Shown: one piece after another, positions 1,113-59,229 of the stretch
Layout: each line of letters opens with the position of its first letter
How positions within the stretch are numbered: position 1 is the stretch's first letter
NCBI GenBank assembly: GCA_012837765.1
Contig: DUQO01000018.1
Span: forward strand, 16,014-80,013
Direction of reading: 5' to 3'
DNA length: 64,000 nt
Origin: Mollicutes bacterium
GTDB lineage: Bacteria > Bacillota_I > Bacilli_A > RF39 > UBA660
Translations under genes and position numbers: made by a program
Notes under the pieces: model-generated
Told to the model about the DNA's origin: nothing
Database searches by the model: none
What the model saw: only the letters and a program-made list of their open reading frames with translations

Positions 1113-1583
1113 TTAATAATCGCTTGTTCTTTCATTTGTAATTTTTGGTTCATCGTCACAAGTTAAAAATTTCACAAACACACCTTGTCCTATTTTGTCT
1201 CCTTTTGAAACTTCCCAGGTTGTTTTTCCTTCATTTTGTAAAACAATGTATAAATGTCCTTCATTGTCTTTGTTATTATAATAATCAGCATCGATTATGC
1301 CTACTTGATTGCATAGTCTTATATTATGCTTAATTCCCATACTGCTTCTAACAACAATCAGTAGTACTTCATCAGGTTCCATCATTACTTTTAACCCTGT
1401 TGGTATTTTTATTTTTTCACCACATTCTAATTTAAACGGAAAAAGCGAATGAAAATCATATCCTGCAGCTTGTTTTGTTCCTCTATTTGGTAATATTAAA
1501 TCGTCATACATTTCTTTAATATTATCATGACCTTTTAAATCCTTTACAAATTGTTCATAACTAATTTTTTCAAACTTTCTCAT
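1113..1583 (-). CDS. dut: dUTP diphosphatase (phage/YosS-like dUTPase fold)
   Basis: Motifs AGYDF, RSSMG, GIIDADY and KGDKIGQ resemble Bacillus YncF/YosS dUTPases. RBS AGAGGTGA present. No terminator before metG, 17 nt downstream. Confidence 0.75.
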   Translation of the reverse strand: MRKFEKISYEQFVKDLKGHDNIKEMYDDLILPNRGTKQAAGYDFHSLFPFKLECGEKIKIPTGLKVMMEPDEVLLIVVRSSMGIKHNIRLCNQVGIIDADYYNNKDNEGHLYIVLQNEGKTTWEVSKGDKIGQGVFVKFLTCDDEPKITNERTSDY

Positions 1584-1587
1584 TTAA

Positions 1588-1806
1588 TCACCTCTATAAA
1601 AAAATCCCTATATTGCAAAAACATAAGGACGAATGATCGCGGTACCACCTTAATTCATAGTAATTACTATGCACTCAAACTTTAACGCAGTAAACGGTCT
1701 TATGACAGCTAAAGGGCCATTTTCCGCAAGTTTTATACTCTTTTTCACCACCCAAGAGTTCTCTATGATAAACACTTGTTTCTCTTCCTTTTCAAAGCCT
1801 TTCAAT
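1588..1806 (-). ncRNA. T-box riboswitch leader upstream of dut-metG
   Basis: Minus strand carries AATTAAGGTGGTACCGCG (T-box consensus AAUUAGGGUGGUACCGCG, 1 mismatch) at 1639-1656. F-box-like CCGTTTAC at 1691-1698. AGAGA and GGUGA stem I elements present. Terminator hairpin TCCTTAT...ATAGGGA plus T7 at 1598-1629 sits immediately before the dut RBS. Confidence 0.7.
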
Positions 1807-9690: not shown

Positions 9691-9999
9691 TTACATCAAT
9701 CCTGACAACCCAGAGCCATATTTTCCTAATTTTTCTTCAATCTCAGCATCAACTTTTTTCAAAGCATCATTAACAGCAATAACAATAATATCTTGAAGCA
9801 TCTCAATATCGGTATCGTCAAATTTAAAATCCTTATCAAATGTTATTTTTAACACTTCTTTTTTCCCATTTACACTAACTTCTACAAAAGAATATTTCCC
9901 GGGAAATATTTTTGCATCAATTTCCTCCTTGGTTTTTAACATTTCTTGTTGTAATTTTTGTGCTTGTTTCATCATTGCTTGAATATTCACTTTTATCAT
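9691..9999 (-). CDS. ybaB: Nucleoid-associated protein YbaB/EbfC
   Basis: 102 aa between dnaX and recR, with the characteristic family pattern. Confidence 0.85.
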   Translation of the reverse strand: MIKVNIQAMMKQAQKLQQEMLKTKEEIDAKIFPGKYSFVEVSVNGKKEVLKITFDKDFKFDDTDIEMLQDIIVIAVNDALKKVDAEIEEKLGKYGSGLSGLM

Positions 10000-11793: not shown

Positions 11794-12201
11794 CTAGTTT
11801 CTCATTTTTTTAAAAAACAACTTTAATAATCTTGAACACTCCTTTTCTTGTACATCACTATTTGTAATAACAAGTGGCAAATCAACTTCTTTTGTATTTT
11901 TGGTACCATATACAACCTTATCCATACGTGCTTGTTTAATAGCACCCATACACATAGGACAAGGCTCTAAAGTAACATAGATTGTACAACCATTAAGACG
12001 CCAATCTTTTATTTTTTTACAAGCCTTTTTAATAGCTAGAATTTCTGCATGGCACGTTGTATCTTTTTTTGTTTCTCTTTTGTTATGTGCTCTTGCTATA
12101 ATTTTTGAATCTTTTACAATTACAGCTCCAACAGGAACTTCTCCCTTGCGAAGAGCCTTCTTTGCTTGCTCAATTGCTTCACTCATATATATTTCTTCCA
12201 T
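11794..12201 (-). CDS. tadA: tRNA-specific adenosine deaminase
   Basis: HAE and PCPMC zinc motifs. Start set at MEEIYMSEA, which has RBS AAAGGTGA; the ORF-track start at 12231 is GTG-initiated. Confidence 0.85.
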   Translation of the reverse strand: MEEIYMSEAIEQAKKALRKGEVPVGAVIVKDSKIIARAHNKRETKKDTTCHAEILAIKKACKKIKDWRLNGCTIYVTLEPCPMCMGAIKQARMDKVVYGTKNTKEVDLPLVITNSDVQEKECSRLLKLFFKKMRN

Positions 12202-12220
12202 ATTTTCACCTTTTAAAAAA

Positions 12221-12296
12221 AAGACGCACACAAAAAGGGATTGTTAAGGCTGCTTTCTTCCGAATCTGACCTGATTCCAATATTTTTGTTGCGCCA
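12221..12296 (-). ncRNA. ffs: Small (4.5S-type) SRP RNA
   Basis: Minus strand AGGUCAGAUUCGGAAGAAAGCAGCC matches the SRP domain IV consensus AGGUCAGGUCCGGAAGGAAGCAGCC, with a compensatory closing pair around the GGAA tetraloop. 5' GGCGCAACAAAAA pairs with 3' UUUUUGUGUGCGUC, followed by a U-run. Confidence 0.6.
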
Positions 12297-12301
12297 TATA
12301 T

Positions 12302-12330
12302 AATATACATTATTTTGCCTAAAAATACAA
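12302..12330 (-). promoter_or_regulatory. Promoter for the SRP RNA (TTGTAT-17-tgTATATT, extended -10)
   Basis: Read on the minus strand: TTGTATttttaggcaaaataatgTATATT, 7 nt upstream of the GGCGC RNA 5' end. Confidence 0.5.
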
Positions 12331-12358
12331 CCAAAAAAGGTTTTTATTATTCAAAAAT

Positions 12359-12480
12359 ATTTCCCGGGAAATATTTCCTACACCTTTGTTAACAAATGGT
12401 AACCAGGTTGTTATTTTTACAATGTTTCACGTGAAACATTGTAGTAGTTTTTTGATTATATGTTTCACGTGAAACATATA
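12359..12480. promoter_or_regulatory. Cluster of perfect palindromes: AAATATTTCCCGGGAAATATTT, TTGTTAACAA, CAATGTTTCACGTGAAACATTG, ATATGTTTCACGTGAAACATAT
   Basis: Read directly from the sequence. Two copies of a 16-bp TGTTTCACGTGAAACA core lie 45 bp apart (centre to centre). Candidate operator sites. Confidence 0.5.
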
Positions 12481-12626
12481 ACATCTTCTATTGTTAAAAT
12501 ACAAAATCTTTATAATTGCAAGATTCTATATGGCAACTTTATTTGAAACAATTTGTAAAGATGTGAAGCAATTGTTTTTTTTGCTGATATGCGATACTTT
12601 ATTAGCTTCTCATTTTAAAGATAATA

Positions 12627-12664
12627 AAAGCACTGACTTTATTGCATCAGTGCTTTCTTTTTTA
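12627..12664. terminator. Bidirectional rho-independent terminator after gyrA
   Basis: AAAGCACTGA / TCAGTGCTTT stem with T-runs on both strands. Confidence 0.7.
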
Positions 12665-15121
12665 TTCGTTGGTTTCCTCTTCTGTTTTTATTTCACCCTC
12701 TTCTTCAGTTTCTTCTTTTTCAACGTTAAAGCTTGTCGTTACTTTTTGTTCATCTTTTAAAGTAATCAATCTCACTCCTTGTGTTACTCTACTCATAATT
12801 GAAATTTGATCAATTGGTATTCTAATTACCATTCCACTATCTGTAATTATAATTAGATCTTGAGTTTCATCTACTACCTTAAAGGAAACTATTCCTCCAT
12901 TTTTATCTGTGCTATTTATTGTTTTAACTCCTTTGCTTCCTCTATGAGTTAAACGATATTCGCTAACTTTAGTTCTTTTACCATAACCGTTTTCTGTAAC
13001 AACTAACACTTCTTTTTCATCTTCTGCTATTTCGATTCCAACGCATTTTGAATCTCCTAAATTAATTCCTTTTACTCCAGAAGCAGTTCTTCCCATTATA
13101 CGAACTTCATCCTCATCGAATCGAACCATTCTTCCAGCTGAAGAGGCTAATAAAATTTGATCATTACCATTAGTTTTTCTTACCCCTATCAATTCATCTC
13201 CATCTTTAAGAGTGATAGCTATTTTTCCGCTAGAACGGATGTTTTCAAACTCTTTCATCTCTACTCGTTTGACTTGTCCGTTTCTTGTAGCAAAAATCAA
13301 ATTATAATCGTGTTCTTCTGCATGAACAGGGAGAACTGAGTTTACGTACTCATCAGATTCTATCGGTAAAATGTTTACTATTGGCAAACCTTTTGCTTGT
13401 CTACTGTACTCTGGTATTTCATATCCTTTTACTCGGTAAACTTTACCCTTATTAGTAAAGAATAAGAGATATTCATGAGTTGTCATTGTTACCAAATCTT
13501 GTACGAAATCTTCTTCATTAGTCGTCATTCCTTTAACACCAACACCACCTTTGTTTTGTAATTTATATGTGTCTGTTGGAATTCTTTTGATATATCCTTT
13601 ATTAGTAAGAGTAATTATTATATCTTCCACTGGAATAAGTGACTCATCTTCGATATATTCAATAGTCTCATTATCAATATAGGTTCTTCTCTCATCTCCA
13701 TATTTTTGTTTTATCTCAAGTAATTCGTTTTTCACAATTTCTAGAACCTTTTCTTCACTCGCTAATATTGATTTTAATTCGCTTATAAGTATTAATAAGT
13801 TTTTTAATTCCTCATCTATTTTTTCCCTTTCAAGGCCTGTCAATCTTCTCAATTTCATTTCTAGGATTGCTTCAGATTGAACATCAGTTAAACCAAATTT
13901 CTCCATCAAAGATTTTTTAGCAATAGCATCATCATTAGATGATTTTAATATTTTTATTATTTCGTCAATATGATCTAGTGCAATTTTCAATCCCTCTAAT
14001 ATATGAGCACGTTTTTCTGCCTTATCTAAATCAAATTGCGTTCTTCTATAAATAACTGTTCGTTGGAAATCAATATATTTTTCTATAATTTCTTTTAACC
14101 CAAACGTTCTTGGTTGTCCATCATGTAACATCAATAGATTTATACCATAACTAGTTTGTAATGGTGTATGTTTATATAGATTATTTAATATAACATTAGC
14201 TTTTGCGTCTCTTTTTAATTCTATTATTATCTTAACGCCATTTTTTACAGAAGATTCATCATATAAGTCAGATATTCCATCGATGACCTTATCTCTTACC
14301 AATTCTGCTATCTTTTTCTTTAAAGTTGTTTTATTTACTTTATATGGAATTTCTGTAATGACAATTTCTGATTTATTATTTTTTTCTACAATTTCAGCTT
14401 TCCCTCTGATTGTAATGGAACCCTTACCGGTTTCATAAGCTTTTTTGATACCACTATTACCTAAAATAATACCACCAGTTGGAAAATCTGGTCCTTTAAT
14501 ATGTTTCATCAATTCAAGAACATCTATATCGTGATTATCTATATAAGCCACGCATCCATCTATTACTTCAGATAAATTATGCGGTGGAATATTAGTTGCC
14601 ATTCCTACAGCAATTCCCATTGTCCCATTAACTAAAATGTTAGGAAATCTACTAGGTAATACCACTGGCTCCTTTTTCGTAGCATCAAAGTTATCTGTAA
14701 AATCAACAGTATTTTTATTAATATCTCTTAATAATTCAGTTGCTATTTTAGCTATACGAGCTTCGGTGTAACGATAAGCAGCTGCGCCATATCCGTCTAT
14801 TGAACCAAAGTTTCCGTGTCCATCAATCAATGGATATCTATAACTAAAATCTTGCGCCATTATTACAAGAGAATCATATGCTGCGGTGTCACCATGTGGG
14901 TGATAATTACCTATTACATTACCAACTGTTTTAGCGCTCTTCTGATATGGTTTTTCTGGTGTATAACCAGACTCATACATTGTATATAAAATTCTTCTGT
15001 GTACTGGTTTTAATCCATCTCTTAAATCGGGTAAAGCTCTAGATACAATAACGCTCATTGAATAATCCAAAAAGCTTTTTTCCATTTCTTTCGCTATGTT
15101 TACTTCGTATATTTTATCCAT
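12662..15121 (-). CDS. gyrA: DNA gyrase subunit A
   Basis: 819 aa with the active-site region AAMRYTEARIAKIA (Tyr) and an acidic C-terminal tail. Confidence 0.95.
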   Translation of the reverse strand: MDKIYEVNIAKEMEKSFLDYSMSVIVSRALPDLRDGLKPVHRRILYTMYESGYTPEKPYQKSAKTVGNVIGNYHPHGDTAAYDSLVIMAQDFSYRYPLIDGHGNFGSIDGYGAAAYRYTEARIAKIATELLRDINKNTVDFTDNFDATKKEPVVLPSRFPNILVNGTMGIAVGMATNIPPHNLSEVIDGCVAYIDNHDIDVLELMKHIKGPDFPTGGIILGNSGIKKAYETGKGSITIRGKAEIVEKNNKSEIVITEIPYKVNKTTLKKKIAELVRDKVIDGISDLYDESSVKNGVKIIIELKRDAKANVILNNLYKHTPLQTSYGINLLMLHDGQPRTFGLKEIIEKYIDFQRTVIYRRTQFDLDKAEKRAHILEGLKIALDHIDEIIKILKSSNDDAIAKKSLMEKFGLTDVQSEAILEMKLRRLTGLEREKIDEELKNLLILISELKSILASEEKVLEIVKNELLEIKQKYGDERRTYIDNETIEYIEDESLIPVEDIIITLTNKGYIKRIPTDTYKLQNKGGVGVKGMTTNEEDFVQDLVTMTTHEYLLFFTNKGKVYRVKGYEIPEYSRQAKGLPIVNILPIESDEYVNSVLPVHAEEHDYNLIFATRNGQVKRVEMKEFENIRSSGKIAITLKDGDELIGVRKTNGNDQILLASSAGRMVRFDEDEVRIMGRTASGVKGINLGDSKCVGIEIAEDEKEVLVVTENGYGKRTKVSEYRLTHRGSKGVKTINSTDKNGGIVSFKVVDETQDLIIITDSGMVIRIPIDQISIMSRVTQGVRLITLKDEQKVTTSFNVEKEETEEEGEIKTEEETNE

Positions 15122-18341: not shown

Positions 18342-19697
18342 CTATTTCCCAAGACAAAATTGCTTGAATAATTCATCAATTAACTCTTCGCTATAGTTTT
18401 CTCCAACTATATTACCCAGCAATTCAAATATCCTTTTTAAGTCAATAGCTAACATATCAATAGGTAAATTGTCGTTTAAAGCAGTTTCTACATCTTTAAT
18501 AACTTTCATAACTTCATTTAGAAGGCCTATTTGTCTTGCATTTGATAAATATGTTAAATCAGCATGTTCTATTTTATCTATGCTAAACAATTCTTTTATC
18601 CTGTTTTTTAAGTTTTCTAAACCGTTTTCAGACATTGTATTTCCATAAATAACGTTTTCACCTTCTAATTTTGATTCATCAAGCTTTGATGGTAAATCAT
18701 CCTTGTTTATAAATATTATTCTCTTCGTTTGTTTTGTTTTCTCTAACAAGTCTAAATCATCTTCTGTAATACCTTCATTATTATTTAATATCAAAATAAC
18801 AAGATCAGTCTCATTTATTAGTTTCATACTTTTAGAAACACCTATTTGCTCAATTTTGTCATCTGTTTGTCTGATTCCTGCAGTATCGATAACATTTAAT
18901 ATTATTCCATCTATATTTACGTCACCTTCTACAATATCTCTTGTAGTTCCAGGTGTATCGGTAACAATGGCCTTTTCTTCATCAATCAATTTATTTAGAA
19001 GACTGCTTTTTCCAACATTTGGTCTCCCAATAATTATTGTTTTAATACCTTCTTTTATTACTCTACTATTTTCGGATTCTTTTAATATTCGTTCTGCTTC
19101 TTCTTTTATACTTTTAATACTTTCCTTTATCATCTCATTGGTAACAACTAAAATGTCCTCATATTCGGGATAATCAATATTTACATCTATATTTATCAAA
19201 ATGTCTCTAACTTTATTTCGTAACGATTTTATTAATTTAGATACTCTTCCTTCAACTTGATTTATTGCTAATTTGCGCATTTTTTCACTTTTAGCATTGA
19301 TCAGATCCATTACACCCTCTGCTTCTAATAAATCAATTCTTCCATTTAAGAAAGCTCTTTTAGTAAACTCTCCTGGTTCTGCTAATCTAACTCCCTTAGA
19401 TAGTATTAAAGAAAAAACCTTATTAGTTGTATTTATTCCACCATGACAATTAACCTCAACAACATCTTCTCTTGTATAAGTCCTCGGTGCCAACATGATT
19501 GACACTAAAACTTCATCAATTATTTCATCTCCATCTACAATATGACCATAATGAATAGTATGAGTCTCTTGTTTTGTTAAATCAGTACCTTTAAAAATCT
19601 TGTTAACAACGTCGATAGCATCGCTTCCACTTAGTCTTATGATAGAAACAGCTCCAACACCAAGTGCTGTTGATATTGCTGCAATTGTATCATTCAT
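18342..19697 (-). CDS. mnmE: tRNA modification GTPase MnmE
   Basis: G1 GRPNVGKSSLLN, C-terminal CLGK. Start set at MNDTIAAIST. Confidence 0.9.
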   Translation of the reverse strand: MNDTIAAISTALGVGAVSIIRLSGSDAIDVVNKIFKGTDLTKQETHTIHYGHIVDGDEIIDEVLVSIMLAPRTYTREDVVEVNCHGGINTTNKVFSLILSKGVRLAEPGEFTKRAFLNGRIDLLEAEGVMDLINAKSEKMRKLAINQVEGRVSKLIKSLRNKVRDILINIDVNIDYPEYEDILVVTNEMIKESIKSIKEEAERILKESENSRVIKEGIKTIIIGRPNVGKSSLLNKLIDEEKAIVTDTPGTTRDIVEGDVNIDGIILNVIDTAGIRQTDDKIEQIGVSKSMKLINETDLVILILNNNEGITEDDLDLLEKTKQTKRIIFINKDDLPSKLDESKLEGENVIYGNTMSENGLENLKNRIKELFSIDKIEHADLTYLSNARQIGLLNEVMKVIKDVETALNDNLPIDMLAIDLKRIFELLGNIVGENYSEELIDELFKQFCLGK

Positions 19698-19771
19698 GTT
19701 TACACCTCCTTTAAACAAAAAAACTTACTCTTTAAATTTATTTTTTTTGTGAAAAAAACGAATAACAGTAA

Positions 19772-30704: not shown

Positions 30705-32009
30705 TTAATTTTTGTTTATTTTAATTATTACTTGAAAAATATTTTCAAAATCTAATTCTTCTATATTTACTTTAAAATCTGCCTTTTCTAATTTAGTTAC
30801 AACATCCCTTATTGCTGATATAGCACTATTAAAATCTCCCGATACAGGTTCATTTCTGTCAGCACTTAACCCGTTTGTTTGACGATATTCTGCTACTAAA
30901 CTATCAGTAAAAGTTTTAGCTTCCATAGGTTTTGGTTGTTCTTGATTATTATTTTTCAAAAATGGAAAAGAATTAGTTTCTTCATTTTCTTCATCATCAG
31001 GAAAAGTAATAAAACGAGGCTTAGGTTCTGCTGTTTCTTCCACATTAGTAGTGGTAGTACTTTCTTCATTTTTAGGAACTATACCTAATAATTTATTAAC
31101 ATCTGCTTTTTCTGGTTCAGGGTTAATATCTTTTGCTTCTTCTTTTATAAGATTGATGTCAATTTTTTGTATTCCTTCGTTAGGAATGCTTATTGGTGGA
31201 GGAGTTGAGACATTAACGTCTTTCTCTTCTTCTTTAGCTTTTGGTATTTCTATATATGGAATAGGTGCTGATAAACGAGAAGAAATATCATTAAAATCTA
31301 ATGTTTCTACTGGATTATTAATGTTTGGTATATTTTCCTTTGCAATCAAGTTTTGTTTTTGTACTTCCATTCTATTACTTTCATTTTGATTATTATTTGG
31401 ATTATTTATTGATTTTATCATTTCGTCTGTTTGTTTAACAGTTAATCTATTAGTCAAAATTTTATTTAATATTGCTTTTTGATCTTCTTCATTTTTTAAA
31501 TTTAATAAGCTTCTAGCATGGCGTTCTGATATTCTACCATTTAATAAAGCTTCCTTTACTTCACTTGAAAGTCCAAGTAATCTTAGTTTATTAGAAATAG
31601 TTGATTGATTTTTTCCCATTCTAGCAGCTAGTTGTTCTTGTGTTAAATATCCTCTATCTAACAGTTTTTTATATGACTCAGCTTCTTCAAGAGCAGACAA
31701 ATCTTTTCTTTGAATATTTTCTACAATTGCAACTTCAGCACTTGCGTTATCATCTAAATTCATTACAATTGCAGGTACTTTTTGAAGTCCAGCCATTTGG
31801 GCAGCTTTATAACGACGCTCTCCAGCAATAATTTCATATTTATCATTTATTTTTCTAACCACCAAAGGTTGAATTATTCCGTGTTGTTTTATAGAATCAG
31901 CGAGTTCATTTAATGCTTTTTCGTCAAAAGTTAGACGCGGTTGAAAACGATTAGGAATTATATCATCTATAAATAAAGATACTACTTCCTTTTCATATTT
32001 ATCATTCAT
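30705..32009 (-). CDS. ParB/Spo0J/Noc-family protein with long C-terminal extension (434 aa)
   Basis: N-terminal ParB box GERRYKAA with an HTH, followed by an N/Q-rich low-complexity extension. No parA/soj in the window. Confidence 0.7.
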   Translation of the reverse strand: MNDKYEKEVVSLFIDDIIPNRFQPRLTFDEKALNELADSIKQHGIIQPLVVRKINDKYEIIAGERRYKAAQMAGLQKVPAIVMNLDDNASAEVAIVENIQRKDLSALEEAESYKKLLDRGYLTQEQLAARMGKNQSTISNKLRLLGLSSEVKEALLNGRISERHARSLLNLKNEEDQKAILNKILTNRLTVKQTDEMIKSINNPNNNQNESNRMEVQKQNLIAKENIPNINNPVETLDFNDISSRLSAPIPYIEIPKAKEEEKDVNVSTPPPISIPNEGIQKIDINLIKEEAKDINPEPEKADVNKLLGIVPKNEESTTTTNVEETAEPKPRFITFPDDEENEETNSFPFLKNNNQEQPKPMEAKTFTDSLVAEYRQTNGLSADRNEPVSGDFNSAISAIRDVVTKLEKADFKVNIEELDFENIFQVIIKINKN

Positions 32010-34895: not shown

Positions 34896-37436
34896 TTAAA
34901 GTCCTTCTCCAACAGATAAGACAGCACGAAAGCCATAACCACCACCAAACTCAGCACCCATAAAATATTCAAAATTGAAAGGACCCGCAGAGGCACCACT
35001 ACCATAATAACCACCGCGAATAAACCAAGGATTACTGTTATTTGCCATATAAGAATAGTCTCCATACCATGATGTTGAGCCTGTTCCCACATTACTTGTC
35101 TCATAAAGTGCATCGCCTTTAGACGATATAGTTAATTTATAATTTTCTGTTTGATTATCCGTTTCAGCTACTTCATATACATCTTTATATTTAGAGTGTG
35201 ATATGTAAGCACTTTCACCATATACTGTTAAATATACGTGTGAATTATCTACATAGGCGGATAAATATTCCCAGGCTCCTCCTGACATATCATATATACC
35301 TGTTATATTTCCTGTTGTACTTGCCTTTACTCCATCAGTTGTATGGTACTCATTACAGATACTTTCATTTGTTGCATTTACTCCACTACCTGCACATCCT
35401 GTTTTATTTGAAGTGTTTGAATTATTCCATATTTCATTTGGATTACCATACTGTGATTTAGATAGATATGCTACTGCGCCCCATTCGGTATTCTTCATCA
35501 TATGGGTATCTATTCCATTACCACTGGTTCCCCAGCCATAGATTGAATTAGTTTCCATACTCCTTACTTTGTTAAATATATTATTTACTGATATGTATCT
35601 CCATGAAATTACTCCTGGTACTATTTTAACATTGTTACTTCCGTCATTGCTTGACTCAAATTTTCCTACCCAAATTCCTGTAAGTTCAACACCACCAAAG
35701 GTGAAAGCTGGATGACTTGTCCATGTTCCATTAGAGTCTGTTGCACGCCCTGTATTTACTAATGTTACTGTGCCTCCTAATGTATCATCTATACCTTTAC
35801 TAAATTGAACCTCGATTGTTCCTGTACTAGATGAATGCCATCCTGATGTAATCCTATATATATATCTTGGGATCCAGACCCACATTGAACCATCAGCTGT
35901 TTTAGCATTAGCCCACATCATTTCATCATAATTATACCATTCAGAATCTGACAAACTTGTATTAACCCAGGTTGTTCCATTCCATTTAATTGGGATCATT
36001 CCTTCTGCTAAAATAGGAGCGTTTGCTATACTTTTTTCACGAACATCTATTATTCTTTTAATACTCGTCTTATTTCCACTAAAATCACTAACTACATATT
36101 CAATTTTGTATGTTCCAGGTTTATTTATATTTAAATTACTAATTTTAATTATTTTGTCTGTTATATCCCCATCTACATTATCAATTGCTGTAGCTCCTGC
36201 ATCTACATACTCTTCACCAACATATAGATTTATTAAATTATCACCTAACAATGTGATTACAGGTTTTTCTCTATCAACACTAACAATGTCTTTTATCACA
36301 TATGGATTATCAAATTCACCTGTTCCTCTATCAATATATATATTTCCTTTTAAATTAATAACAGGTCTTGTGTGAATTGTAGTGTTGGCATCAACAGGAG
36401 CACCTAATGAACCAACAGAATTAACAGTCCATACTTTGGTGGAATTATTATCAGGTGTAAGAGTCCAATAATTATAAAAGTTTTTATATAAATAATTATC
36501 ATTTTTACAACTGATTCCATTATCACCTGATGTTTTATATGCTGTCAAACAATTATTATCTAGACTAGCGTATAAATAATCACTTCCATTTAATAATCCT
36601 ATTGATAAATTTGTTGTTTGTGTTACACATTCATTATTTAAAAATGTTGATTTTGTAACTCCACTAGTGCTATAACCTATTTTTCCAACACACCATTTGT
36701 TCGTTTGTACTTTTGCTTTGTTATTTTCACTTATGTTTGAATTGTACCAATTTTGCAATCTTGTCGCTATAGAAACAGAACTTTTATATTCATTTGTGTT
36801 TGAATTATCAAATGTTCCATTTCCTATATTTCCATTTTGTTCTGTTCCTTCTCCTTTTCGTTTTCCTTCATATATTATTTTTATAGAATCATCATTATTT
36901 ATTTTGACAATGCGCCATAAAGAATCATTAAATTCAATCCAATTTTTAGGATTTAATCCTCTATAATAATAAGTATTATTTGAATAATTAAAATGCAAAC
37001 CTGGAGTAGTTCCTGAAACTACATTAGTTGATTCAGTTAATTTATCAACTAAGAAAATTGGTGCATAACAACCTCTATCTTCATAACAAATAGATAATGT
37101 TTTTTTTGTTTCACGAACAACAAAAATCTTTTTAGTTAAATCAATTTCTTCGTCACTTCTAGGATCTTTAACAGGCAATTTTAATAAATTATCTTCTTTT
37201 AAATCATTTAATGACAAACTATAATAATTATAAGTATCAAGATGTTTTTCTATTTCATCACGGTGTCTTGAAACATATAATCTAGCATTATTTTCAAAAC
37301 TATCTATTAAAATATTATATGAATTTTCCTTAGCATTTCTTATCATTTTAAAAACGCTAGGTATAACAAGAGATGATAATATTACAAGTATAACTATTAC
37401 TGCTAATAATTCAACTAATGTAAATCCCTTTTTCAT
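34896..37436 (-). CDS. Large prepilin-type N-terminal domain protein with DUF5011 Ig-like domain and FGE-sulfatase-like C-terminal domain
   Basis: Class III signal MKKGFTLVELLAVIVIL (G|FTLVE). DUF5011 block PVITLLGDN...GATAIDNVDGDIT...PGTY...VSDFSGN. C-terminal motifs NTEWGAVAY, GIYDMSGGAWEY, PWFIRGGYY and GGGYGFRAV parallel the FGE/SUMF1 blocks. Own promoter and RBS AGGTGA. The ORF-track start is a TTG; the ATG is at 37436. Confidence 0.6.
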   Translation of the reverse strand: MKKGFTLVELLAVIVILVILSSLVIPSVFKMIRNAKENSYNILIDSFENNARLYVSRHRDEIEKHLDTYNYYSLSLNDLKEDNLLKLPVKDPRSDEEIDLTKKIFVVRETKKTLSICYEDRGCYAPIFLVDKLTESTNVVSGTTPGLHFNYSNNTYYYRGLNPKNWIEFNDSLWRIVKINNDDSIKIIYEGKRKGEGTEQNGNIGNGTFDNSNTNEYKSSVSIATRLQNWYNSNISENNKAKVQTNKWCVGKIGYSTSGVTKSTFLNNECVTQTTNLSIGLLNGSDYLYASLDNNCLTAYKTSGDNGISCKNDNYLYKNFYNYWTLTPDNNSTKVWTVNSVGSLGAPVDANTTIHTRPVINLKGNIYIDRGTGEFDNPYVIKDIVSVDREKPVITLLGDNLINLYVGEEYVDAGATAIDNVDGDITDKIIKISNLNINKPGTYKIEYVVSDFSGNKTSIKRIIDVREKSIANAPILAEGMIPIKWNGTTWVNTSLSDSEWYNYDEMMWANAKTADGSMWVWIPRYIYRITSGWHSSSTGTIEVQFSKGIDDTLGGTVTLVNTGRATDSNGTWTSHPAFTFGGVELTGIWVGKFESSNDGSNNVKIVPGVISWRYISVNNIFNKVRSMETNSIYGWGTSGNGIDTHMMKNTEWGAVAYLSKSQYGNPNEIWNNSNTSNKTGCAGSGVNATNESICNEYHTTDGVKASTTGNITGIYDMSGGAWEYLSAYVDNSHVYLTVYGESAYISHSKYKDVYEVAETDNQTENYKLTISSKGDALYETSNVGTGSTSWYGDYSYMANNSNPWFIRGGYYGSGASAGPFNFEYFMGAEFGGGYGFRAVLSVGEGL

Positions 37437-37464
37437 CAATTAAATCACCTATTTTCCTGAATTA

Positions 37465-38631: not shown

Positions 38632-38743
38632 TTTTATTATTATTTAAATAATATTATTATTATTATTGTTGTTGATAATGTTGATAAGATGTTTAAAGCT
38701 TTAAATTAAAGACTTTTAGAAATATAAAACTGTTTATAATTTG
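38632..38743. promoter_or_regulatory. oriC part between dnaA and dnaN: two abutting DnaA boxes plus an AT-rich unwinding region
   Basis: TGTTGATAA at 38670-38678 and again at 38679-38687 (TTATCAACA on the minus strand), flanked by (ATT)n runs. Confidence 0.7.
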
Positions 38744-40135
38744 TTATTTCAATTGTTGAATTAAATTGTCAATCATATTTTTTATTTCTTTATTACATTT
38801 TATATCACGTTCTATTTTATCGCAAGCATGAATTACAGTTGAATGATTTTTTCCACCAAACTCCATTCCTATTTTAATGAAAGATTCATCTGTTAATTTC
38901 CTTGATAAATACATAGCAACTTGTCTTGGATAAGAAATTTCATAAGTTCTTCGGTTTGATTTTAAATCATCAACCCTAACCTTATAAAATTCAGCTACGG
39001 TTTTTTGAATTCGATGAATATCATTTTTTAATGATAATGATTTGTTTAAATAATCTTTTAAAGCTTCAATTGCAACATCTAAATTGATTTTTGGAACATT
39101 AAACATAGTTGCATAAGCATATATTCTTGTTAAAGCTCCTTCTAATTGCCTAACATCAGCTTGAAAGTTATTAGCTACATATTCTAAAACGTCGTTTGTA
39201 ATTGTTTTACTTAAATCCCTGTTGATCATTTTCTTTTTCAAAATATTAATTCTAAGTTCATAATCAGGAGGGTAAATATTAACTTTAAGCCCCCAATTAA
39301 ATCTCGTTACAAGTCTTTCTTCCAATAGTTTTAAATCATCTGGTGAACGATCTGATGAAATAATAATTTGTTTATTATCATCATATAAATCATTAAATGT
39401 ATGGAAAAATTCTTGTTGTGATGCAGGAGCACCACTAAGCATTTGAATATCATCAATAATAAGAACATCAATATTTCTATATTTATCTTTAAAATACTCT
39501 ATATAATCATAATTAGTACCATTACTATCTCTTTTTGTTAAGTTAAGAAAATCAGATACAAATTTTTCGCTTGTTACATATAAAACCTTTTTATTTGTAT
39601 TTTTTACTATATAATTTCCAATAGCATGCATTAGATGTGTTTTACCAAGTCCACTATTTCCATATATAAATAAAGGATTATATGCTTTACCAGGGTTTTC
39701 TGCAACAGAAACCGCAGCAGCATGTGCAAAAAAGTTGCTTTCTCCTACAATAAAATTATCAAATATATATTTTGTATTTAAATTAGCTTGAATAGGATCA
39801 TTATATGGAACACCAATATTATCATTATTTGAAATTTGTTTCTTTTTAACATTTATTTCTTCTTCTAAAATAAATTGAAATTCAAAATTAGTTCCTGTTA
39901 CTTCATTAAATGTTTCGACTATTAAATCAATATAATTGTCATTCAAGTGTTTTTTATGAACATGCATAGGAACAATAACTTTTGCAATTCCATTATCCAA
40001 TTCATATAATTTAGTACCTTTAAACCAAGTATCAAAAGGAAGGGAAGTAAGCTTAGAACGAATAATGTTTAAAAAGTTTTGCCATATAGTATCTTTATCC
40101 ATTTTTATCACATCCTTGTTTACATCTAATATCAT
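38744..40135 (-). CDS. dnaA: Chromosomal replication initiator DnaA
   Basis: AAA+ motifs GNSGLGKTHL and box VII, C-terminal DNA-binding domain, 463 aa. Confidence 0.95.
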   Translation of the reverse strand: MILDVNKDVIKMDKDTIWQNFLNIIRSKLTSLPFDTWFKGTKLYELDNGIAKVIVPMHVHKKHLNDNYIDLIVETFNEVTGTNFEFQFILEEEINVKKKQISNNDNIGVPYNDPIQANLNTKYIFDNFIVGESNFFAHAAAVSVAENPGKAYNPLFIYGNSGLGKTHLMHAIGNYIVKNTNKKVLYVTSEKFVSDFLNLTKRDSNGTNYDYIEYFKDKYRNIDVLIIDDIQMLSGAPASQQEFFHTFNDLYDDNKQIIISSDRSPDDLKLLEERLVTRFNWGLKVNIYPPDYELRINILKKKMINRDLSKTITNDVLEYVANNFQADVRQLEGALTRIYAYATMFNVPKINLDVAIEALKDYLNKSLSLKNDIHRIQKTVAEFYKVRVDDLKSNRRTYEISYPRQVAMYLSRKLTDESFIKIGMEFGGKNHSTVIHACDKIERDIKCNKEIKNMIDNLIQQLK

Positions 40136-40507
40136 TTTACCTTATTTTATAACGTTTTGAACAAAAAAAGTGAAAAAACCTACAAAAAAAGAGTTGTTAA
40201 CATACTTATCAACACCAAAAACCTTATATTTGTAATAAAAAGAAGAGTTATCAACAAAATGTTGTTGATAATAACTTTTTTTATAATAAATTTGATTGTT
40301 GATATTGTTAATAACTCATCAAAACTTATAATAAAAGAAAAAAATTAAAAAAATATCAACAAAAAACCTAATTTATTTTGTCAATAATAAATATTTATCA
40401 ACAAGGAAAATTTTTTTTTAAAAAGAAATAATAAAATAAACCAATATCTTTTATTGACAATGAAGATGTGTTTAATTATAATGTTAATGAATGTGGAGGT
40501 GTATTAA
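40136..40507. promoter_or_regulatory. oriC part upstream of dnaA: cluster of DnaA boxes, plus the divergent dnaA and rpmH promoters
   Basis: TTATCAACA at 40206, 40248 and 40395. TGTTGATAA at 40263. One-mismatch boxes at 40297 and 40353. rpmH promoter TTGACA-17-TATAAT at 40455-40483. Confidence 0.8.
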
Positions 40508-47578: not shown

Positions 47579-48295
47579 ATGCTTCATTTTGTAATCTTTG
47601 ATGACAATGAGTTGATAAGAGAAAAAGTAAACAAAGTAATAACTAAATTAATGTTACCGACGGATATAGAATATAAAACGTTGGAATTTTCCAAATACAA
47701 TAAAAGTTTTGCTCAATTGATAGAAAGAAGAGGAGAAAAGAAAATATATATATTAGATATAGAAGTAGATTCTTACTCTGGTTTGGATGTTGCAAGAAAA
47801 ATAAGAGAGAGAGATTGGGAAAGCATTATAATAGTTTTAACAGCACATTATGAACTTGCATATGATGCCTTTAAAAATAGACTAATGTTGTTAGATTTTA
47901 TTTCAAAATTTGATAATTATGAACAAAATTTATATGATGTTTTAAAATTAGCATTAAAAGCATCACATGTTAAAAAACAATTTTCTTTTACTTCCAATAG
48001 AATGGCATATAGGGTTGATTACGATGATATTTTATATATTATCAAGGATACAGCAAAAAGAAATACAATTGTTAAAACTTTTTCTAAAGAATACCCTGTA
48101 TCACTTAACTTAAATGAAATAATGGCAATGTTGCCAGATAATTTTATTCAAACACATAGAGCATGTACAATTAATAGGGATAATGTAAAAACAATTGATT
48201 TTAAAGAAAACATTATAACATTTATTAATAATGAAAAAATATCAATGTTATCAAAAACATATAAGAAAGAAGTGAAAGAACATGTCTTTAGTTGA
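47579..48295 (+). CDS. LytTR-family response regulator (AgrA-like)
   Basis: Receiver with phospho-acceptor Asp in YILDIEVDS. C-terminal LytTR module ...ILYIIKDTAKRNTIV...QTHRACTIN. Confidence 0.8.
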   Translation: MLHFVIFDDNELIREKVNKVITKLMLPTDIEYKTLEFSKYNKSFAQLIERRGEKKIYILDIEVDSYSGLDVARKIRERDWESIIIVLTAHYELAYDAFKNRLMLLDFISKFDNYEQNLYDVLKLALKASHVKKQFSFTSNRMAYRVDYDDILYIIKDTAKRNTIVKTFSKEYPVSLNLNEIMAMLPDNFIQTHRACTINRDNVKTIDFKENIITFINNEKISMLSKTYKKEVKEHVFS

Positions 48296-49595
48296 TTTGA
48301 TTGGCCCCTCTTTTATCTTCAACATATTTCAACTAAAACTATCATCTGTAATAATAAAAGAAAAAATAGACTTTAAAAACGGAAAAAACATATTTTTATT
48401 TATACTTTTAATAGTAATGCTTTCCTTTTCAACTTTAGTTTTTAATAATTTTTTACGAGTGGTATTCAATTTCTTATGTTTGCTCTTTTTCTATTATTTT
48501 ATTCATAACAAAGGAATAAATGTAGCATTTATCGTTTCGTTTATTGCCTTCTTTTTATTTTTTATGTCAGAAATAATATTTTCTTCAATGTTATACTTTG
48601 TTAGTCAAATATGGGATATATCTATTGATATTGAAAAAAATACATTGCTATATTTAATATCAAATATATCAATTGGTTTTATGGCTATTATAATATATCG
48701 AATAAAAAAAATAAAACAAATTATTTTTACTTTGATTAAAAATTATGAAAAAACCAAATTTACTAAAACCATGTTGATAATACTAATGTTAATTTTTGTA
48801 TTAGTAAATAAAAATTTTTTATTGTTTGATTTTTATTTTGATTATCTTTTGAATCTATTTATTGTAGCGTTATTTTGCTTAATAGCTTATTTATTATTAA
48901 AGGAAAAAAATGCAAATGTGTCATTATCTAAAAAATATGATCAACTGTTTAGTTATTTAGAAAATTATGAAAAAGAACTTAATAAAAAAAGTATAATAAT
49001 TCATGAATTTAATAATCAACTAATTGCTATAAAAGGATTCAATGATAAGAAAAATAAGCATTTAGAACAATACCTAAATTCTATAATTAAAGATAATCAA
49101 AAGGGTGGAGAAAAGTTTCTTGATGATATGGAAAACCTTCCAAAGGGAGGATTAAAAGGATTAATTTATTATAAATTAGGATATCTGAAAGATGAAGGAA
49201 TTAATGTTGTAACTGATATTAGTTCAACTGTTAGAAAAAATGCCTTCGCTAAATTTGATCCTTCTTTATATAGAGATATTTTAAAAATAGTAGGTGTGTT
49301 GTTAGATAATGCTGTAGAGGCTGCAAAAGAATCAAAAGAAAAGCAAATATCATTAGAAATCTTTTGTACTAAAAATGATTTTAATATTGTATTATCTAAT
49401 ACCTTTTGTAATAATATTGATCTTGAAAAAATAGATGAATCAAAATATTCGACAAAAGGTAAGGATAGGGGATATGGACTTGCATTAGTAAAGCAAATAG
49501 TTAAAGATAATCCTAAATTGCAAGTTAAAAAAGAAATAATTAATAATTTCTTTGTTTCGACATTAACAATTGAACTAAAAAACACTTCTAATTAG
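48282..49595 (+). CDS. AgrC-like (HPK10) membrane sensor histidine kinase
   Basis: Six N-terminal TM helices, H-box IIIHEFNNQLIAIKG, GHKL motifs LLDNAVEA and GYGLALV. Confidence 0.7.
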   Translation: MSLVDLIGPSFIFNIFQLKLSSVIIKEKIDFKNGKNIFLFILLIVMLSFSTLVFNNFLRVVFNFLCLLFFYYFIHNKGINVAFIVSFIAFFLFFMSEIIFSSMLYFVSQIWDISIDIEKNTLLYLISNISIGFMAIIIYRIKKIKQIIFTLIKNYEKTKFTKTMLIILMLIFVLVNKNFLLFDFYFDYLLNLFIVALFCLIAYLLLKEKNANVSLSKKYDQLFSYLENYEKELNKKSIIIHEFNNQLIAIKGFNDKKNKHLEQYLNSIIKDNQKGGEKFLDDMENLPKGGLKGLIYYKLGYLKDEGINVVTDISSTVRKNAFAKFDPSLYRDILKIVGVLLDNAVEAAKESKEKQISLEIFCTKNDFNIVLSNTFCNNIDLEKIDESKYSTKGKDRGYGLALVKQIVKDNPKLQVKKEIINNFFVSTLTIELKNTSN

Positions 49596-49611
49596 ATAGA
49601 AGTGTTTTTTA
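49578..49611. terminator. Bidirectional terminator between the convergent kinase and agrD
   Basis: Perfect 13-bp inverted repeat AAAAACACTTCTA / TAGAAGTGTTTTT. Confidence 0.65.
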
Positions 49612-49616
49612 GATTA

Positions 49617-49751
49617 TTATTCTATTATTGATTTTGGTGCTTCTGGTTCATCAAACCAAAAAAGAATGCATCCAACATGAGCAGCATTAGAAGCAAGTAA
49701 GCCAACTACTGCTGCAAAGCGTCCTATAATCTTTAGTGTCCTCTTTTTCAT
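49617..49751 (-). CDS. agrD: AgrD-like autoinducing peptide precursor (44 aa)
   Basis: My translation MKKRTLKIIGRFAAVVGLLASNAAHVGCILFWFDEPEAPKSIIE: amphipathic leader, conserved Cys, C-terminal DEPEAPK tail (compare S. aureus ...CDFIMDEVEVPKEL). RBS GGGAGGAATATT. Below the ORF-track cutoff. Confidence 0.7.
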   Translation of the reverse strand: MKKRTLKIIGRFAAVVGLLASNAAHVGCILFWFDEPEAPKSIIE

Positions 49752-49784
49752 AATATTCCTCCCTTCTCATTCTTTATCAAATCA

Positions 49785-50390
49785 TCATTTTTTTTGATGA
49801 TATGATTTGTAGTTGTTATATGGTAAATTTAGTAATCTATATGAAATGGGTATTATTAGTAAAGATTCAATTACTAATGAAAATATAAGGCAATTTGATA
49901 CTAAGTTATTGCTTATAAAAAATGACAACAAACCATAAAAAATAGCTGTCAAAGAAGAAAGTAATTTATATTTTTTTCTTCTTTTTTTATTTATTAGTGG
50001 TCGTTTATGAGTGTCTGCAGGAGCATATAAAATAATAATAATAAAGCAAATAATAAAAATTAATATTTTTATAAATAAATTTATTACTAATACTGAGGCT
50101 AAATAAGATGTAAAAATAAAAACACTACCAGATAAAAACAAACAAATTCTGCTATTAGGAGCATGCAATCCAAAAGCATATAATCTAATACCACTAAATA
50201 TAATTGTTAATAACAAAAATTCTTTTAAAAGATTTAGAAAAAAACTGACTGTAACAAAAAGTATTGTTTTTCCAAGTAACAAGTATATTGCTTCTAAACC
50301 ATAACTAATTTTTTCGATATGTATATTGTTGTATGAGTTGTCATTTTTTTCTATCACCATAAGTAACTTATTTATAACTGCATTTTTCAT
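49785..50390 (-). CDS. agrB: AgrB-like membrane peptidase/cyclase
   Basis: Catalytic region FGLHAPNSRICLF (His/Cys) and YAPADTHKRP, 201 aa polytopic membrane protein. Confidence 0.8.
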   Translation of the reverse strand: MKNAVINKLLMVIEKNDNSYNNIHIEKISYGLEAIYLLLGKTILFVTVSFFLNLLKEFLLLTIIFSGIRLYAFGLHAPNSRICLFLSGSVFIFTSYLASVLVINLFIKILIFIICFIIIILYAPADTHKRPLINKKRRKKYKLLSSLTAIFYGLLSFFISNNLVSNCLIFSLVIESLLIIPISYRLLNLPYNNYKSYHQKK

Positions 50391-58115: not shown

Positions 58116-59229
58116 ATGGAAATGAAACAAATAAAACAAGAGTTTGAAACATATAAAAATGAAATTGAAGAAATATGGAGGCTTCTTTGACTTAACAGAA
58201 AAGGAAGAAAAAATTAAAGAATTAACTATTCAAATGAACAATCCAGACTTTTGGAATGATAAAGAAAAAGCAGAGAAAATAATCGAAGAATGTAATAATC
58301 TTAAAACAATTGTTGGGAATGTATCGACATTAAAAAAGACTATAAACGACAATATAGAAATGATAGAAATGTTGGATGAAGAACCAAATGATGAAATAGT
58401 TAGTATAATTGAGGCAGAAATGCCAGGTATAGAAAAGAAACTTGATGATCTTAGGCTAGAAGTAATATTGAATGAACCATATGATAAGAATAATGCTTTA
58501 CTAGAAATTCATGCAGGGGCAGGTGGAACAGAGTCTTGTGATTGGGCTAGTATGCTTATGCGTATGTATTTAAGATGGTGTGATGTAAAATCTTATAAAT
58601 ACGAGATACTAGATGTACAAAACGGAGATGAAGCTGGAATAAAAAGAGCTAATATCTTAATAAAAGGGTTTAATGCATATGGATATTTAAAAGGGGAAAA
58701 AGGAGTTCATCGATTAGTTCGTATCTCACCTTTTGATGCTAATAAAAGACGTCATACATCTTTTGCAGCAATTGAAGTTATACCACAAATAGATGATAGT
58801 ATTGAAGTTGAACTAAAGGATTCAGAACTAAAGATAGACGTATATCGTAGCAGTGGTGCTGGTGGACAATCAGTAAATACAACAGACAGTGCGGTAAGAA
58901 TCACGCATCTACCTACTGGAGTTGTTGTAACATGTCAAAACGAACGTAGTCAGATTAAAAATAAGGAAAAAGCTCTTCAAGTATTAAAAAGTAAATTATA
59001 TCAATTGGAATTAGAAAAAAGAGATAAATCCTTATCAGTAATGAAAGGAAATCTTTCCGAAATTAATTTTGGATCGCAAATAAGATCCTATGTTATGCAT
59101 CCTTATATGATGGTTAAAGATCATCGCACGGAAGAAGAAACAAGTAATGTTTTGAAAGTATTAGATGGGGATATAGATATGTTTATAGAAAAGTATTTGA
59201 AGGGGCGAATTAGTAATGAAAAAAAATAA
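58116..59229 (+). CDS. prfB: Peptide chain release factor 2, with programmed +1 frameshift at CTT TGA C (58185-58191)
   Basis: Frame 0 reads MEMKQIKQEFETYKNEIEEIWRLL then TGA. SD-like GGAGG sits 3 nt upstream of CTT TGA C. The +1 frame continues DLTEKEEKIKEL...SPF...GGQ through 59229. Parallels B. subtilis ...DFRGSL*DLESKE... Confidence 0.85.

Follow-up and report, generated by a model that had tools for sequence, protein, structure and literature searches.

What is a cluster of long palindromes doing in a short non-coding gap near the replication origin of a bacterial chromosome, and which proteins would read it? The gap, 356 bp between the SRP RNA gene and the gyrA stop codon, lies in the window analysed here (the whole 64-kb stretch of DNA), which is the origin region, at 28% GC, of a spore-forming Firmicute with an RNA polymerase delta subunit. 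The preliminary description of this DNA placed a dense cluster of palindromes upstream of the SRP RNA/tadA unit, a position that our annotation confirms, and proposed that the duplicated palindrome in it looked like a paired operator for a dimeric regulator and also had the shape of sites bound by ParB and Noc. The features of the gap and its flanks are as follows:

9893-9908: NBS-2, exact TATTTCCCGGGAAATA, within a palindrome at 9891-9910, inside the ybaB/ebfC coding sequence
11794-12231, minus strand: tadA
12208-12305, minus strand: SRP RNA gene (ffs), upstream of tadA (Rfam RF00169, 61.5 bits)
~12302-12330, minus strand: ffs promoter-like element, TTGTAT-17 nt-TATATT, conserved in the alignment with relatives and apart from the sites
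12358-12373: NBS-1, exact TATTTCCCGGGAAATA, within a CCCGGG-centred palindrome of 22 bp at 12355-12376
12386-12395: TTGTTAACAA, inside a 12-bp palindrome at 12385-12396
12398-12406: TGGTAACCA, a small near-palindrome in the cluster
12423-12438: parS-1, exact TGTTTCACGTGAAACA, the perfect palindrome extending to 12418-12443 (26 bp)
12461-12476: parS-2, exact TGTTTCACGTGAAACA, the perfect palindrome extending to 12456-12481 (26 bp)
12511-12516: TATAAT, in a window-specific stretch of ~190 bp
12626-12657, minus strand: terminator-like hairpin just 3' of the gyrA stop, the origin-side limit of the site-bearing gap
12662-15121, minus strand: gyrA

The gap thus holds a parS pair and NBS-1, and NBS-2 lies 2.5 kb from the cluster on its origin-distal side. 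As far as the letters go, the nature of the large palindromes is settled by recognising parS and NBS in them, motifs that are themselves already known. Consensus parS is TGTTTCAC-GTGAAACA and consensus NBS is TATTTCCC-GGGAAATA (Jalal et al. 2020, PMC7383237). The former is, letter for letter, the duplicated 16-mer, and the latter is the core of the CCCGGG-centred palindrome (which reads, in full, AAATATTTCCC and then GGGAAATATTT), so that what had been noticed as a ParB/Noc-like shape is an exact match to both consensus sites. The 22-bp palindrome around CCCGGG had been described as we find it. The other two had been given as 22-bp palindromes sharing a 16-bp core and lying 45 bp apart; two exact copies of TGTTTCACGTGAAACA are indeed present, but the perfect palindromes are 26 bp long, their common core is 18 bp and their centres are 38 bp apart. 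NBS-1 and parS-1 are separated by 49 bp.

These sites stand out from the rest of the window. When all perfect palindromes in the 64 kb are ranked by length, the two parS sites and NBS-1 take the first three places and NBS-2 the fourth. Four matches to parS at up to three mismatches occur in the window, against a mean of 0.45 in shuffled sequences, none of which (0/100) reached four. Short palindromes, in contrast, are as frequent as simulated: 138 of at least 10 bp (32 of them 12 bp long) were counted, and Markov simulations gave 146 +/- 13. For that reason TTGTTAACAA and TGGTAACCA are at chance level, and since their palindromic form is not kept in the two closest relatives, we rejected both as functional sites. 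The three large palindromes of the cluster, in contrast, are far beyond chance. A consensus scan also scores the parS-1 palindrome and the TAGTTTTTTG that follows it (12417-12444, plus strand) as terminator-like. We did not retain a terminator here, the hit being a by-product of a palindrome followed by a T-run; the score is probably incidental, and a parS-1 hairpin could pause plus-strand transcription.

To place the cluster relative to the origin, we located dnaA, the DnaA-box-like clusters and the GC-skew minimum, which lies near 40 kb. The gene and origin features are:

38744-40135, minus strand: dnaA
38670-40403: oriC, with TTATCAACA DnaA-box-like clusters on both sides of dnaA, at the GC-skew minimum

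Matches resembling TTATCCACA number 24 in all, and 6 of the 24, every one of them TTATCAACA, fall in two short gaps beside dnaA (38670-38687 and 40206-40403), a placement at the GC-skew minimum that is consistent with a bipartite oriC. On the plus side of the origin follow rnpA, yidC and jag, and on the minus side dnaN, mnmG and rsmG, with recF, gyrB and gyrA further out. The cluster is 26-28 kb from dnaA, from the DnaA-box clusters and from the skew minimum, and therefore 26-28 kb from oriC, a typical distance for parS (review PMC7333895). We read the cluster, with a probability of about 0.85, as an origin-proximal centromere-like locus, in which the non-coding gap between gyrA and ffs/tadA carries a pair of consensus parS sites together with a single consensus NBS.

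Several further observations concern the content of the window. Gene order departs from that of Bacillus in that mnmE (18342-19718, minus strand) adjoins recF, not jag, and no soj or spo0J follows the noc-type gene, unlike in Bacillus. Between dnaN and mnmG lies the gene for a protein of 847 aa (34896-37439, minus strand) that has a bacterial surface Ig-like domain. An agr-like quorum-sensing module (47579-50390) lies ~8-10 kb from oriC and comprises a LytTR response regulator (47579-48295, plus strand), a GHKL histidine kinase (48282-49595, plus strand) and AgrB (49785-50390, minus strand). Immediately upstream of an ORF of 156 aa (1113-1583, minus strand), for which dUTPase is the only Pfam hit, is a T-box leader (1622-1804, minus strand; Rfam, 107.9 bits); such a gene is an unusual one to follow a T-box. 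The release factor 2 gene (58144-59229, plus strand) is listed as a single ORF of 361 aa with a TTG start.

Conservation and amplification of the sites in relatives

If the palindromes form a functional locus, they should be visible in related genomes. With GyrA as the anchor, we retrieved 80 loci from species-representative genomes, in which GyrA is 65-75% identical to that of the window. This sample consists of uncultured MAGs or metagenome-derived scaffolds, mostly labelled Bacilli, Tenericutes or Mollicutes, with some labelled otherwise (Muribaculaceae, for example). Across the 80 relatives the order gyrA-sites-tadA-dnaX-ybaB-recR is kept, and sites are missing altogether only where the contig stops less than 150 bp past gyrA. 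With up to one mismatch allowed, 317 parS sites fall within 2.5 kb after gyrA, against 0 in the remaining 1.09 Mb, and the copy number per locus ranges from 1 to ~17. Exact NBS are often interleaved with them, 95 lying within the same 2.5 kb. The sites form two clean classes, with 180 exact parS and 123 exact NBS against 6 mixed sites, and the commonest variant, TGTTCCACGTGAAACA, still fits the parS pattern TGTTNCACGTGAAACA.

Alignment with the two closest relatives (L007 and L008) resolves the gap into conserved blocks, namely both parS sites, the NBS, the ffs promoter-like element and ffs, separated by spacers that have mostly diverged. Conservation extends over all 16 positions of the sites, beyond the central hexamers. 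The window carries an extra stretch of ~190 bp, including the gyrA terminator and the TATAAT, that the two closest relatives do not have; in these, parS starts 14-19 bp past the gyrA stop. Both also carry an NBS at a distance equivalent to that of NBS-2 in the window.

A second search did not depend on the GyrA anchor. We scanned 241 million metagenome records for the pattern NBS-N(20-50)-parS and found it in at least 120 contigs. Among the matches listed, 119 of 120 have gyrA, tadA or dnaX next to the sites, and the GC content is 20-33% throughout. Since these matches lie at the same locus, the juxtaposition of NBS and parS belongs to the gyrA-tadA locus in this group. Far from being absent elsewhere and unconserved in relatives, which the preliminary description had named as the finding that would speak against its view, the sites are kept at one and the same locus in ~200 related contigs (the 80 loci and the metagenome matches listed).

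In some relatives the sites have become tandem arrays, which Tandem Repeats Finder resolves as follows:

L022: 34-bp unit x17.2, one parS per unit
L067: 83-bp unit x13.2, one parS variant and one NBS per unit
L084: 74-bp unit x9, NBS only

Within a single 83-bp repeat array there can be 13 NBS and 10 parS. Contigs often end in or just past parS/NBS arrays (L011, L015, L017, L019, L020, L028, L029 and many of L090-L209); evidently because of these repeats, many public short-read assemblies break right after gyrA.

The distribution of NBS beyond the cluster is uneven. In the relatives (L007-L086), 33 exact NBS occur in 261 kb of origin-distal flank, against 1 in 767 kb on the gyrA-gyrB-recF side, a ~100-fold difference in density, and none was found in 111 kb of noc and oriC loci. 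In the origin-region stretches examined, NBS are thus concentrated beside parS and on the origin-distal flank. In three of four relatives checked, an NBS lies 6.8-7.1 kb beyond gyrA inside a conserved ORF, which we take to be RsmI-like, where it encodes ISREIS and uses a CGG arginine codon, expected to be rare at such GC content.

From the placement of the motifs, this distribution suggests a localised Noc-type zone beside a ParB zone, where the Noc-type protein could act either as a second clamp that cooperates with ParB or as a boundary to ParB spreading. As a boundary, tightly bound Noc-type dimers, or their clamps, on NBS would stop sliding ParB on its way to the strong ffs promoter and to tadA-dnaX, so that the sites would provide insulation and not a joint complex. 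DNA-bound proteins do block sliding ParB clamps; in the window and in its two closest relatives, the parS pair is separated from the ffs promoter by an NBS; and the ~100-fold excess of exact NBS lies on the origin-distal flank. However, NBS and parS alternate unit by unit in many relatives, as in the 83-bp array, and in others NBS lie on both sides of parS; neither arrangement fits a single boundary. We regard a mainly insulating role for the NBS as unlikely.

The Noc-type ParB-family protein

The window encodes one protein that could bind such sites:

30705-32009, minus strand: ParB-family protein gene, 434 aa, just after rsmG; sole family member in the window

This protein has the features of the ParB/Noc superfamily, with the ParB CTP-binding boxes (GERRY and ENIQRKDL motifs), a helix-turn-helix domain and a C-terminal dimerisation domain. 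It scores 184 bits against TIGR00180 and carries the Pfam domains ParB_N and HTH_ParB. Its best PDB matches are Noc structures (E ~1e-59; Noc and Spo0J hits together span E 1e-59 to 1e-48), and it shares 48% identity with Noc across the N-terminal and DNA-binding domains. The NCBIfam Noc profile TIGR04285 gives 298.4 bits, under the cut-off of 315, through a match limited to residues 8-226. Beyond this, a low-complexity linker of ~150 aa precedes the C-terminal domain, whose last 74 aa bear a weak resemblance to Noc (E 0.012, in a comparison with a manually entered B. subtilis Noc sequence).

To ask which site the protein would prefer, we turned to the four positions that set specificity in this family, which read R-T-A-G in ParB and Q-K-K-R in Noc (Jalal et al. 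2020, PMC7383237). The 434-aa protein has Q173, K179, G184 and R201 (recognition region GKNQSTISNKLRLLGL...ISERHAR). In the published work, NBS binding takes no more than one lysine, at position 179 or at 184; R173 is invariant among the parS-specific and parS-binding variants of a mutational scan; and variants of dual specificity exist, most of them with T or S at 201 (Jalal et al. 2020, PMC7383237). The text consulted lists neither of the combinations QKGR and QKNR. By these rules, Q-K-G-R makes the 434-aa protein a predicted binder of NBS and not of parS.

The same residues recur in the 270 closest homologues examined, which comprise the 120 nearest and the 150 best 50%-cluster representatives (59-79% identical). 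Q173 and R201 are present in all 270 and K179 in nearly all. A point against the assignment is position 184, which is G or N and not the usual K. The overall build of the 434-aa protein is likewise found in 150 of the 150 cluster representatives, whose lengths run from 242 to 678 aa.

A feature shared by known Noc proteins is missing. Noc carries at its N-terminus (~aa 1-10) a membrane-targeting amphipathic helix that is reported to occur in all Noc proteins examined and to be indispensable for both membrane binding and nucleoid occlusion (PMC8429893, PMC4331003). In contrast, the 434-aa protein begins at the equivalent of Noc residue ~20-23 and so is without this helix. The gene start offers no alternative, as only 53 nt separate rsmG from the ORF and there is no upstream start codon that would lengthen the N-terminus. 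Most homologues have the same short N-terminus.

We also searched for the protein that would bind parS. Among the genes of the 64-kb window there is neither a parS-type ParB (R173 with a small residue or G at 201) nor a ParA. A phmmer search with the ParB-family domain of the window's protein as query, run over the ORFs of the window, of the related loci and of the 120 metagenome loci, returned only the Noc-type gene, and neither a parS-type ParB nor a ParA was found within ~8-10 kb of the cluster in ~200 related loci. Beside the noc-type gene itself, three relatives show the order rsmG, noc-type gene and a convergent PBP1A gene, with no soj or spo0J. Both the 120 nearest homologues and the 150 best cluster representatives belong to the Noc-type family and include no parS-type ParB; a ParB of this clade, if present, would rank below them. 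Because the consensus parS is strictly conserved, we infer that a canonical, parS-type ParB is encoded elsewhere in the genome, outside the window.

Alternatively, a single ParB-family protein might serve both site types, the canonical ParB having been lost and the Noc-type paralogue, perhaps in a version whose specificity has relaxed, left as the sole centromere binder. It is true that the origin region contains only one ParB-family gene, at the position of noc-soj-spo0J in Bacillus, that relatives also lack soj and spo0J there, and that the mutational scan of Jalal et al. yielded dual-specificity variants. Yet the natural sites are of two strict kinds with almost no hybrids, as two specificities would maintain, and arrays of parS only and of NBS only occur as well. 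Moreover, parS binders keep R173 and the dual variants mostly have T or S at 201, whereas this family has Q173 and R201 throughout. We consider it improbable that one protein reads both sites.

Transcriptional and chance explanations

Could an ordinary dimeric transcription factor instead use the palindromes as a paired operator, as the preliminary description proposed, acting on ffs/tadA or on a plus-strand transcript that starts near 12511? The sites are palindromic and duplicated, they lie upstream of ffs on the minus strand, and a TATAAT is present at 12511-12516. However, the conserved ffs promoter-like element is clear of the sites: NBS-1 begins 27 bp past its -35 box, and the parS sites are 90-150 bp off. 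The plus-strand unit fares no better, because the TATAAT belongs to the window-specific stretch that the closest relatives lack, and a promoter scan of the region found no excess of promoter-like sites but fewer than in shuffled sequences. A copy number of 1-17 among relatives is, in addition, not one that an operator would tolerate, and the sequences are those of ParB and Noc consensus sites. An operator is, in our judgement, highly improbable. As for transcribed products of the gap, an Rfam search returned no RNA family other than ffs, and we rejected an 89-aa plus-strand ORF (12491-12760), which overlaps the 3' end of gyrA, crosses the terminator and covers a stretch that the closest relatives lack.

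That the palindromes are chance, restriction-modification-related or selfish repeats of no cellular function, a view for which one could cite the CCCGGG and CACGTG in their cores and the tandem amplification in relatives, is effectively refuted by conservation, since all 16 positions and not the hexamers alone are kept at one orthologous locus in ~200 contigs while the spacers diverge, and no shuffle out of 100 matched the count of parS-like sites. The resemblance to SmaI, HpaI and PmlI restriction sites, remarked on in the preliminary description, is incidental.

Two predicted clamps at one locus and their relation to known systems

In this protein family, ParB nucleates at parS, slides in a CTP-dependent manner and loads SMC (review PMC7333895), and by analogy with ParABS the same steps would be expected here. 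A canonical ParB, encoded outside the window, would bind each parS as a dimer, take up CTP, close into a clamp and slide onto the flanking DNA. The resulting partition complex would load SMC, mark the origin region for segregation and, if a ParA exists, be pulled apart after replication. The Noc-type paralogue would load likewise at NBS-1, 49 bp away from parS-1, and at NBS-2, such that two different CTP clamps would be loaded side by side on one stretch of DNA.

Since the Noc-type paralogue is without a membrane helix, a role in organising the origin region, with or against ParB, seems likelier than nucleoid occlusion, although assigning it this job over the classical one is speculation. More broadly, we propose tentatively, at slightly less than even odds, that the group has one composite centromere of interleaved parS and NBS at gyrA-tadA/dnaX, and a widespread helix-less clamp of Noc specificity that works alongside ParB and is not a nucleoid-occlusion factor. 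The helix-less protein might represent a stage of Noc evolution in which specificity came first and the helix later, or else a secondary loss.

What goes beyond the known motifs is the locus-specific co-clustering of parS and NBS, the mixed tandem arrays and the large family of helix-less proteins with predicted Noc specificity; a literature search of limited extent returned no description of parS/NBS co-clustering or of a helix-less Noc. In practical terms, the sites offer a ready marker by which to find the origin and centromere in a large group of Bacilli that live, uncultured, in guts and digesters. The side-by-side and alternating arrays imply that two paralogous CTP clamps would be loaded on the same few hundred bp. 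A predicted Noc-type DNA specificity without a membrane anchor bears, in turn, on how Noc arose from ParB and on what an NBS binder does when it is unable to tether DNA to the membrane.

The closest parallel for the parS half of the locus is the chromosomal ParABS system, exemplified by Spo0J(ParB)-parS of B. subtilis, which uses the same 16-bp TGTTTCACGTGAAACA in several origin-proximal copies. In B. subtilis the parS sites are dispersed over hundreds of kb, mostly inside genes. Here, in contrast, the parS sites of the window crowd into a single non-coding gap past gyrA, and the arrays of relatives reach up to ~17 copies. A second difference from ParABS is that genes for ParB and ParA lie near neither oriC nor the sites in the window and the related loci searched.

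The NBS half resembles the Noc-NBS system of B. subtilis, with an identical consensus TATTTCCCGGGAAATA, a gene that directly follows rsmG (gidB), the place of noc in Bacillus, and Q173, K179 and R201 in the predicted binder. [quoted passage not shown] The sites differ in distribution too: published NBS are described as spread over the whole chromosome except for a scarcity near the terminus, whereas in the stretches examined here they are concentrated beside parS and on one flank.

Multi-site centromeres are known from Streptomyces coelicolor and Listeria innocua, which have 20-23 parS, and parS tends to multiply near the original site (PMC7333895). The present locus is like these in having many copies of a ParB site close together. 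In their 34-, 74- and 83-bp units, the arrays of relatives also resemble iterated plasmid centromeres, of which sopC of F is one. Unlike known arrays, however, which consist of one site type read by one ParB, those described here interleave two site types, for two paralogous specificities, sometimes within a single repeat unit, as in the 83-bp unit of L067.
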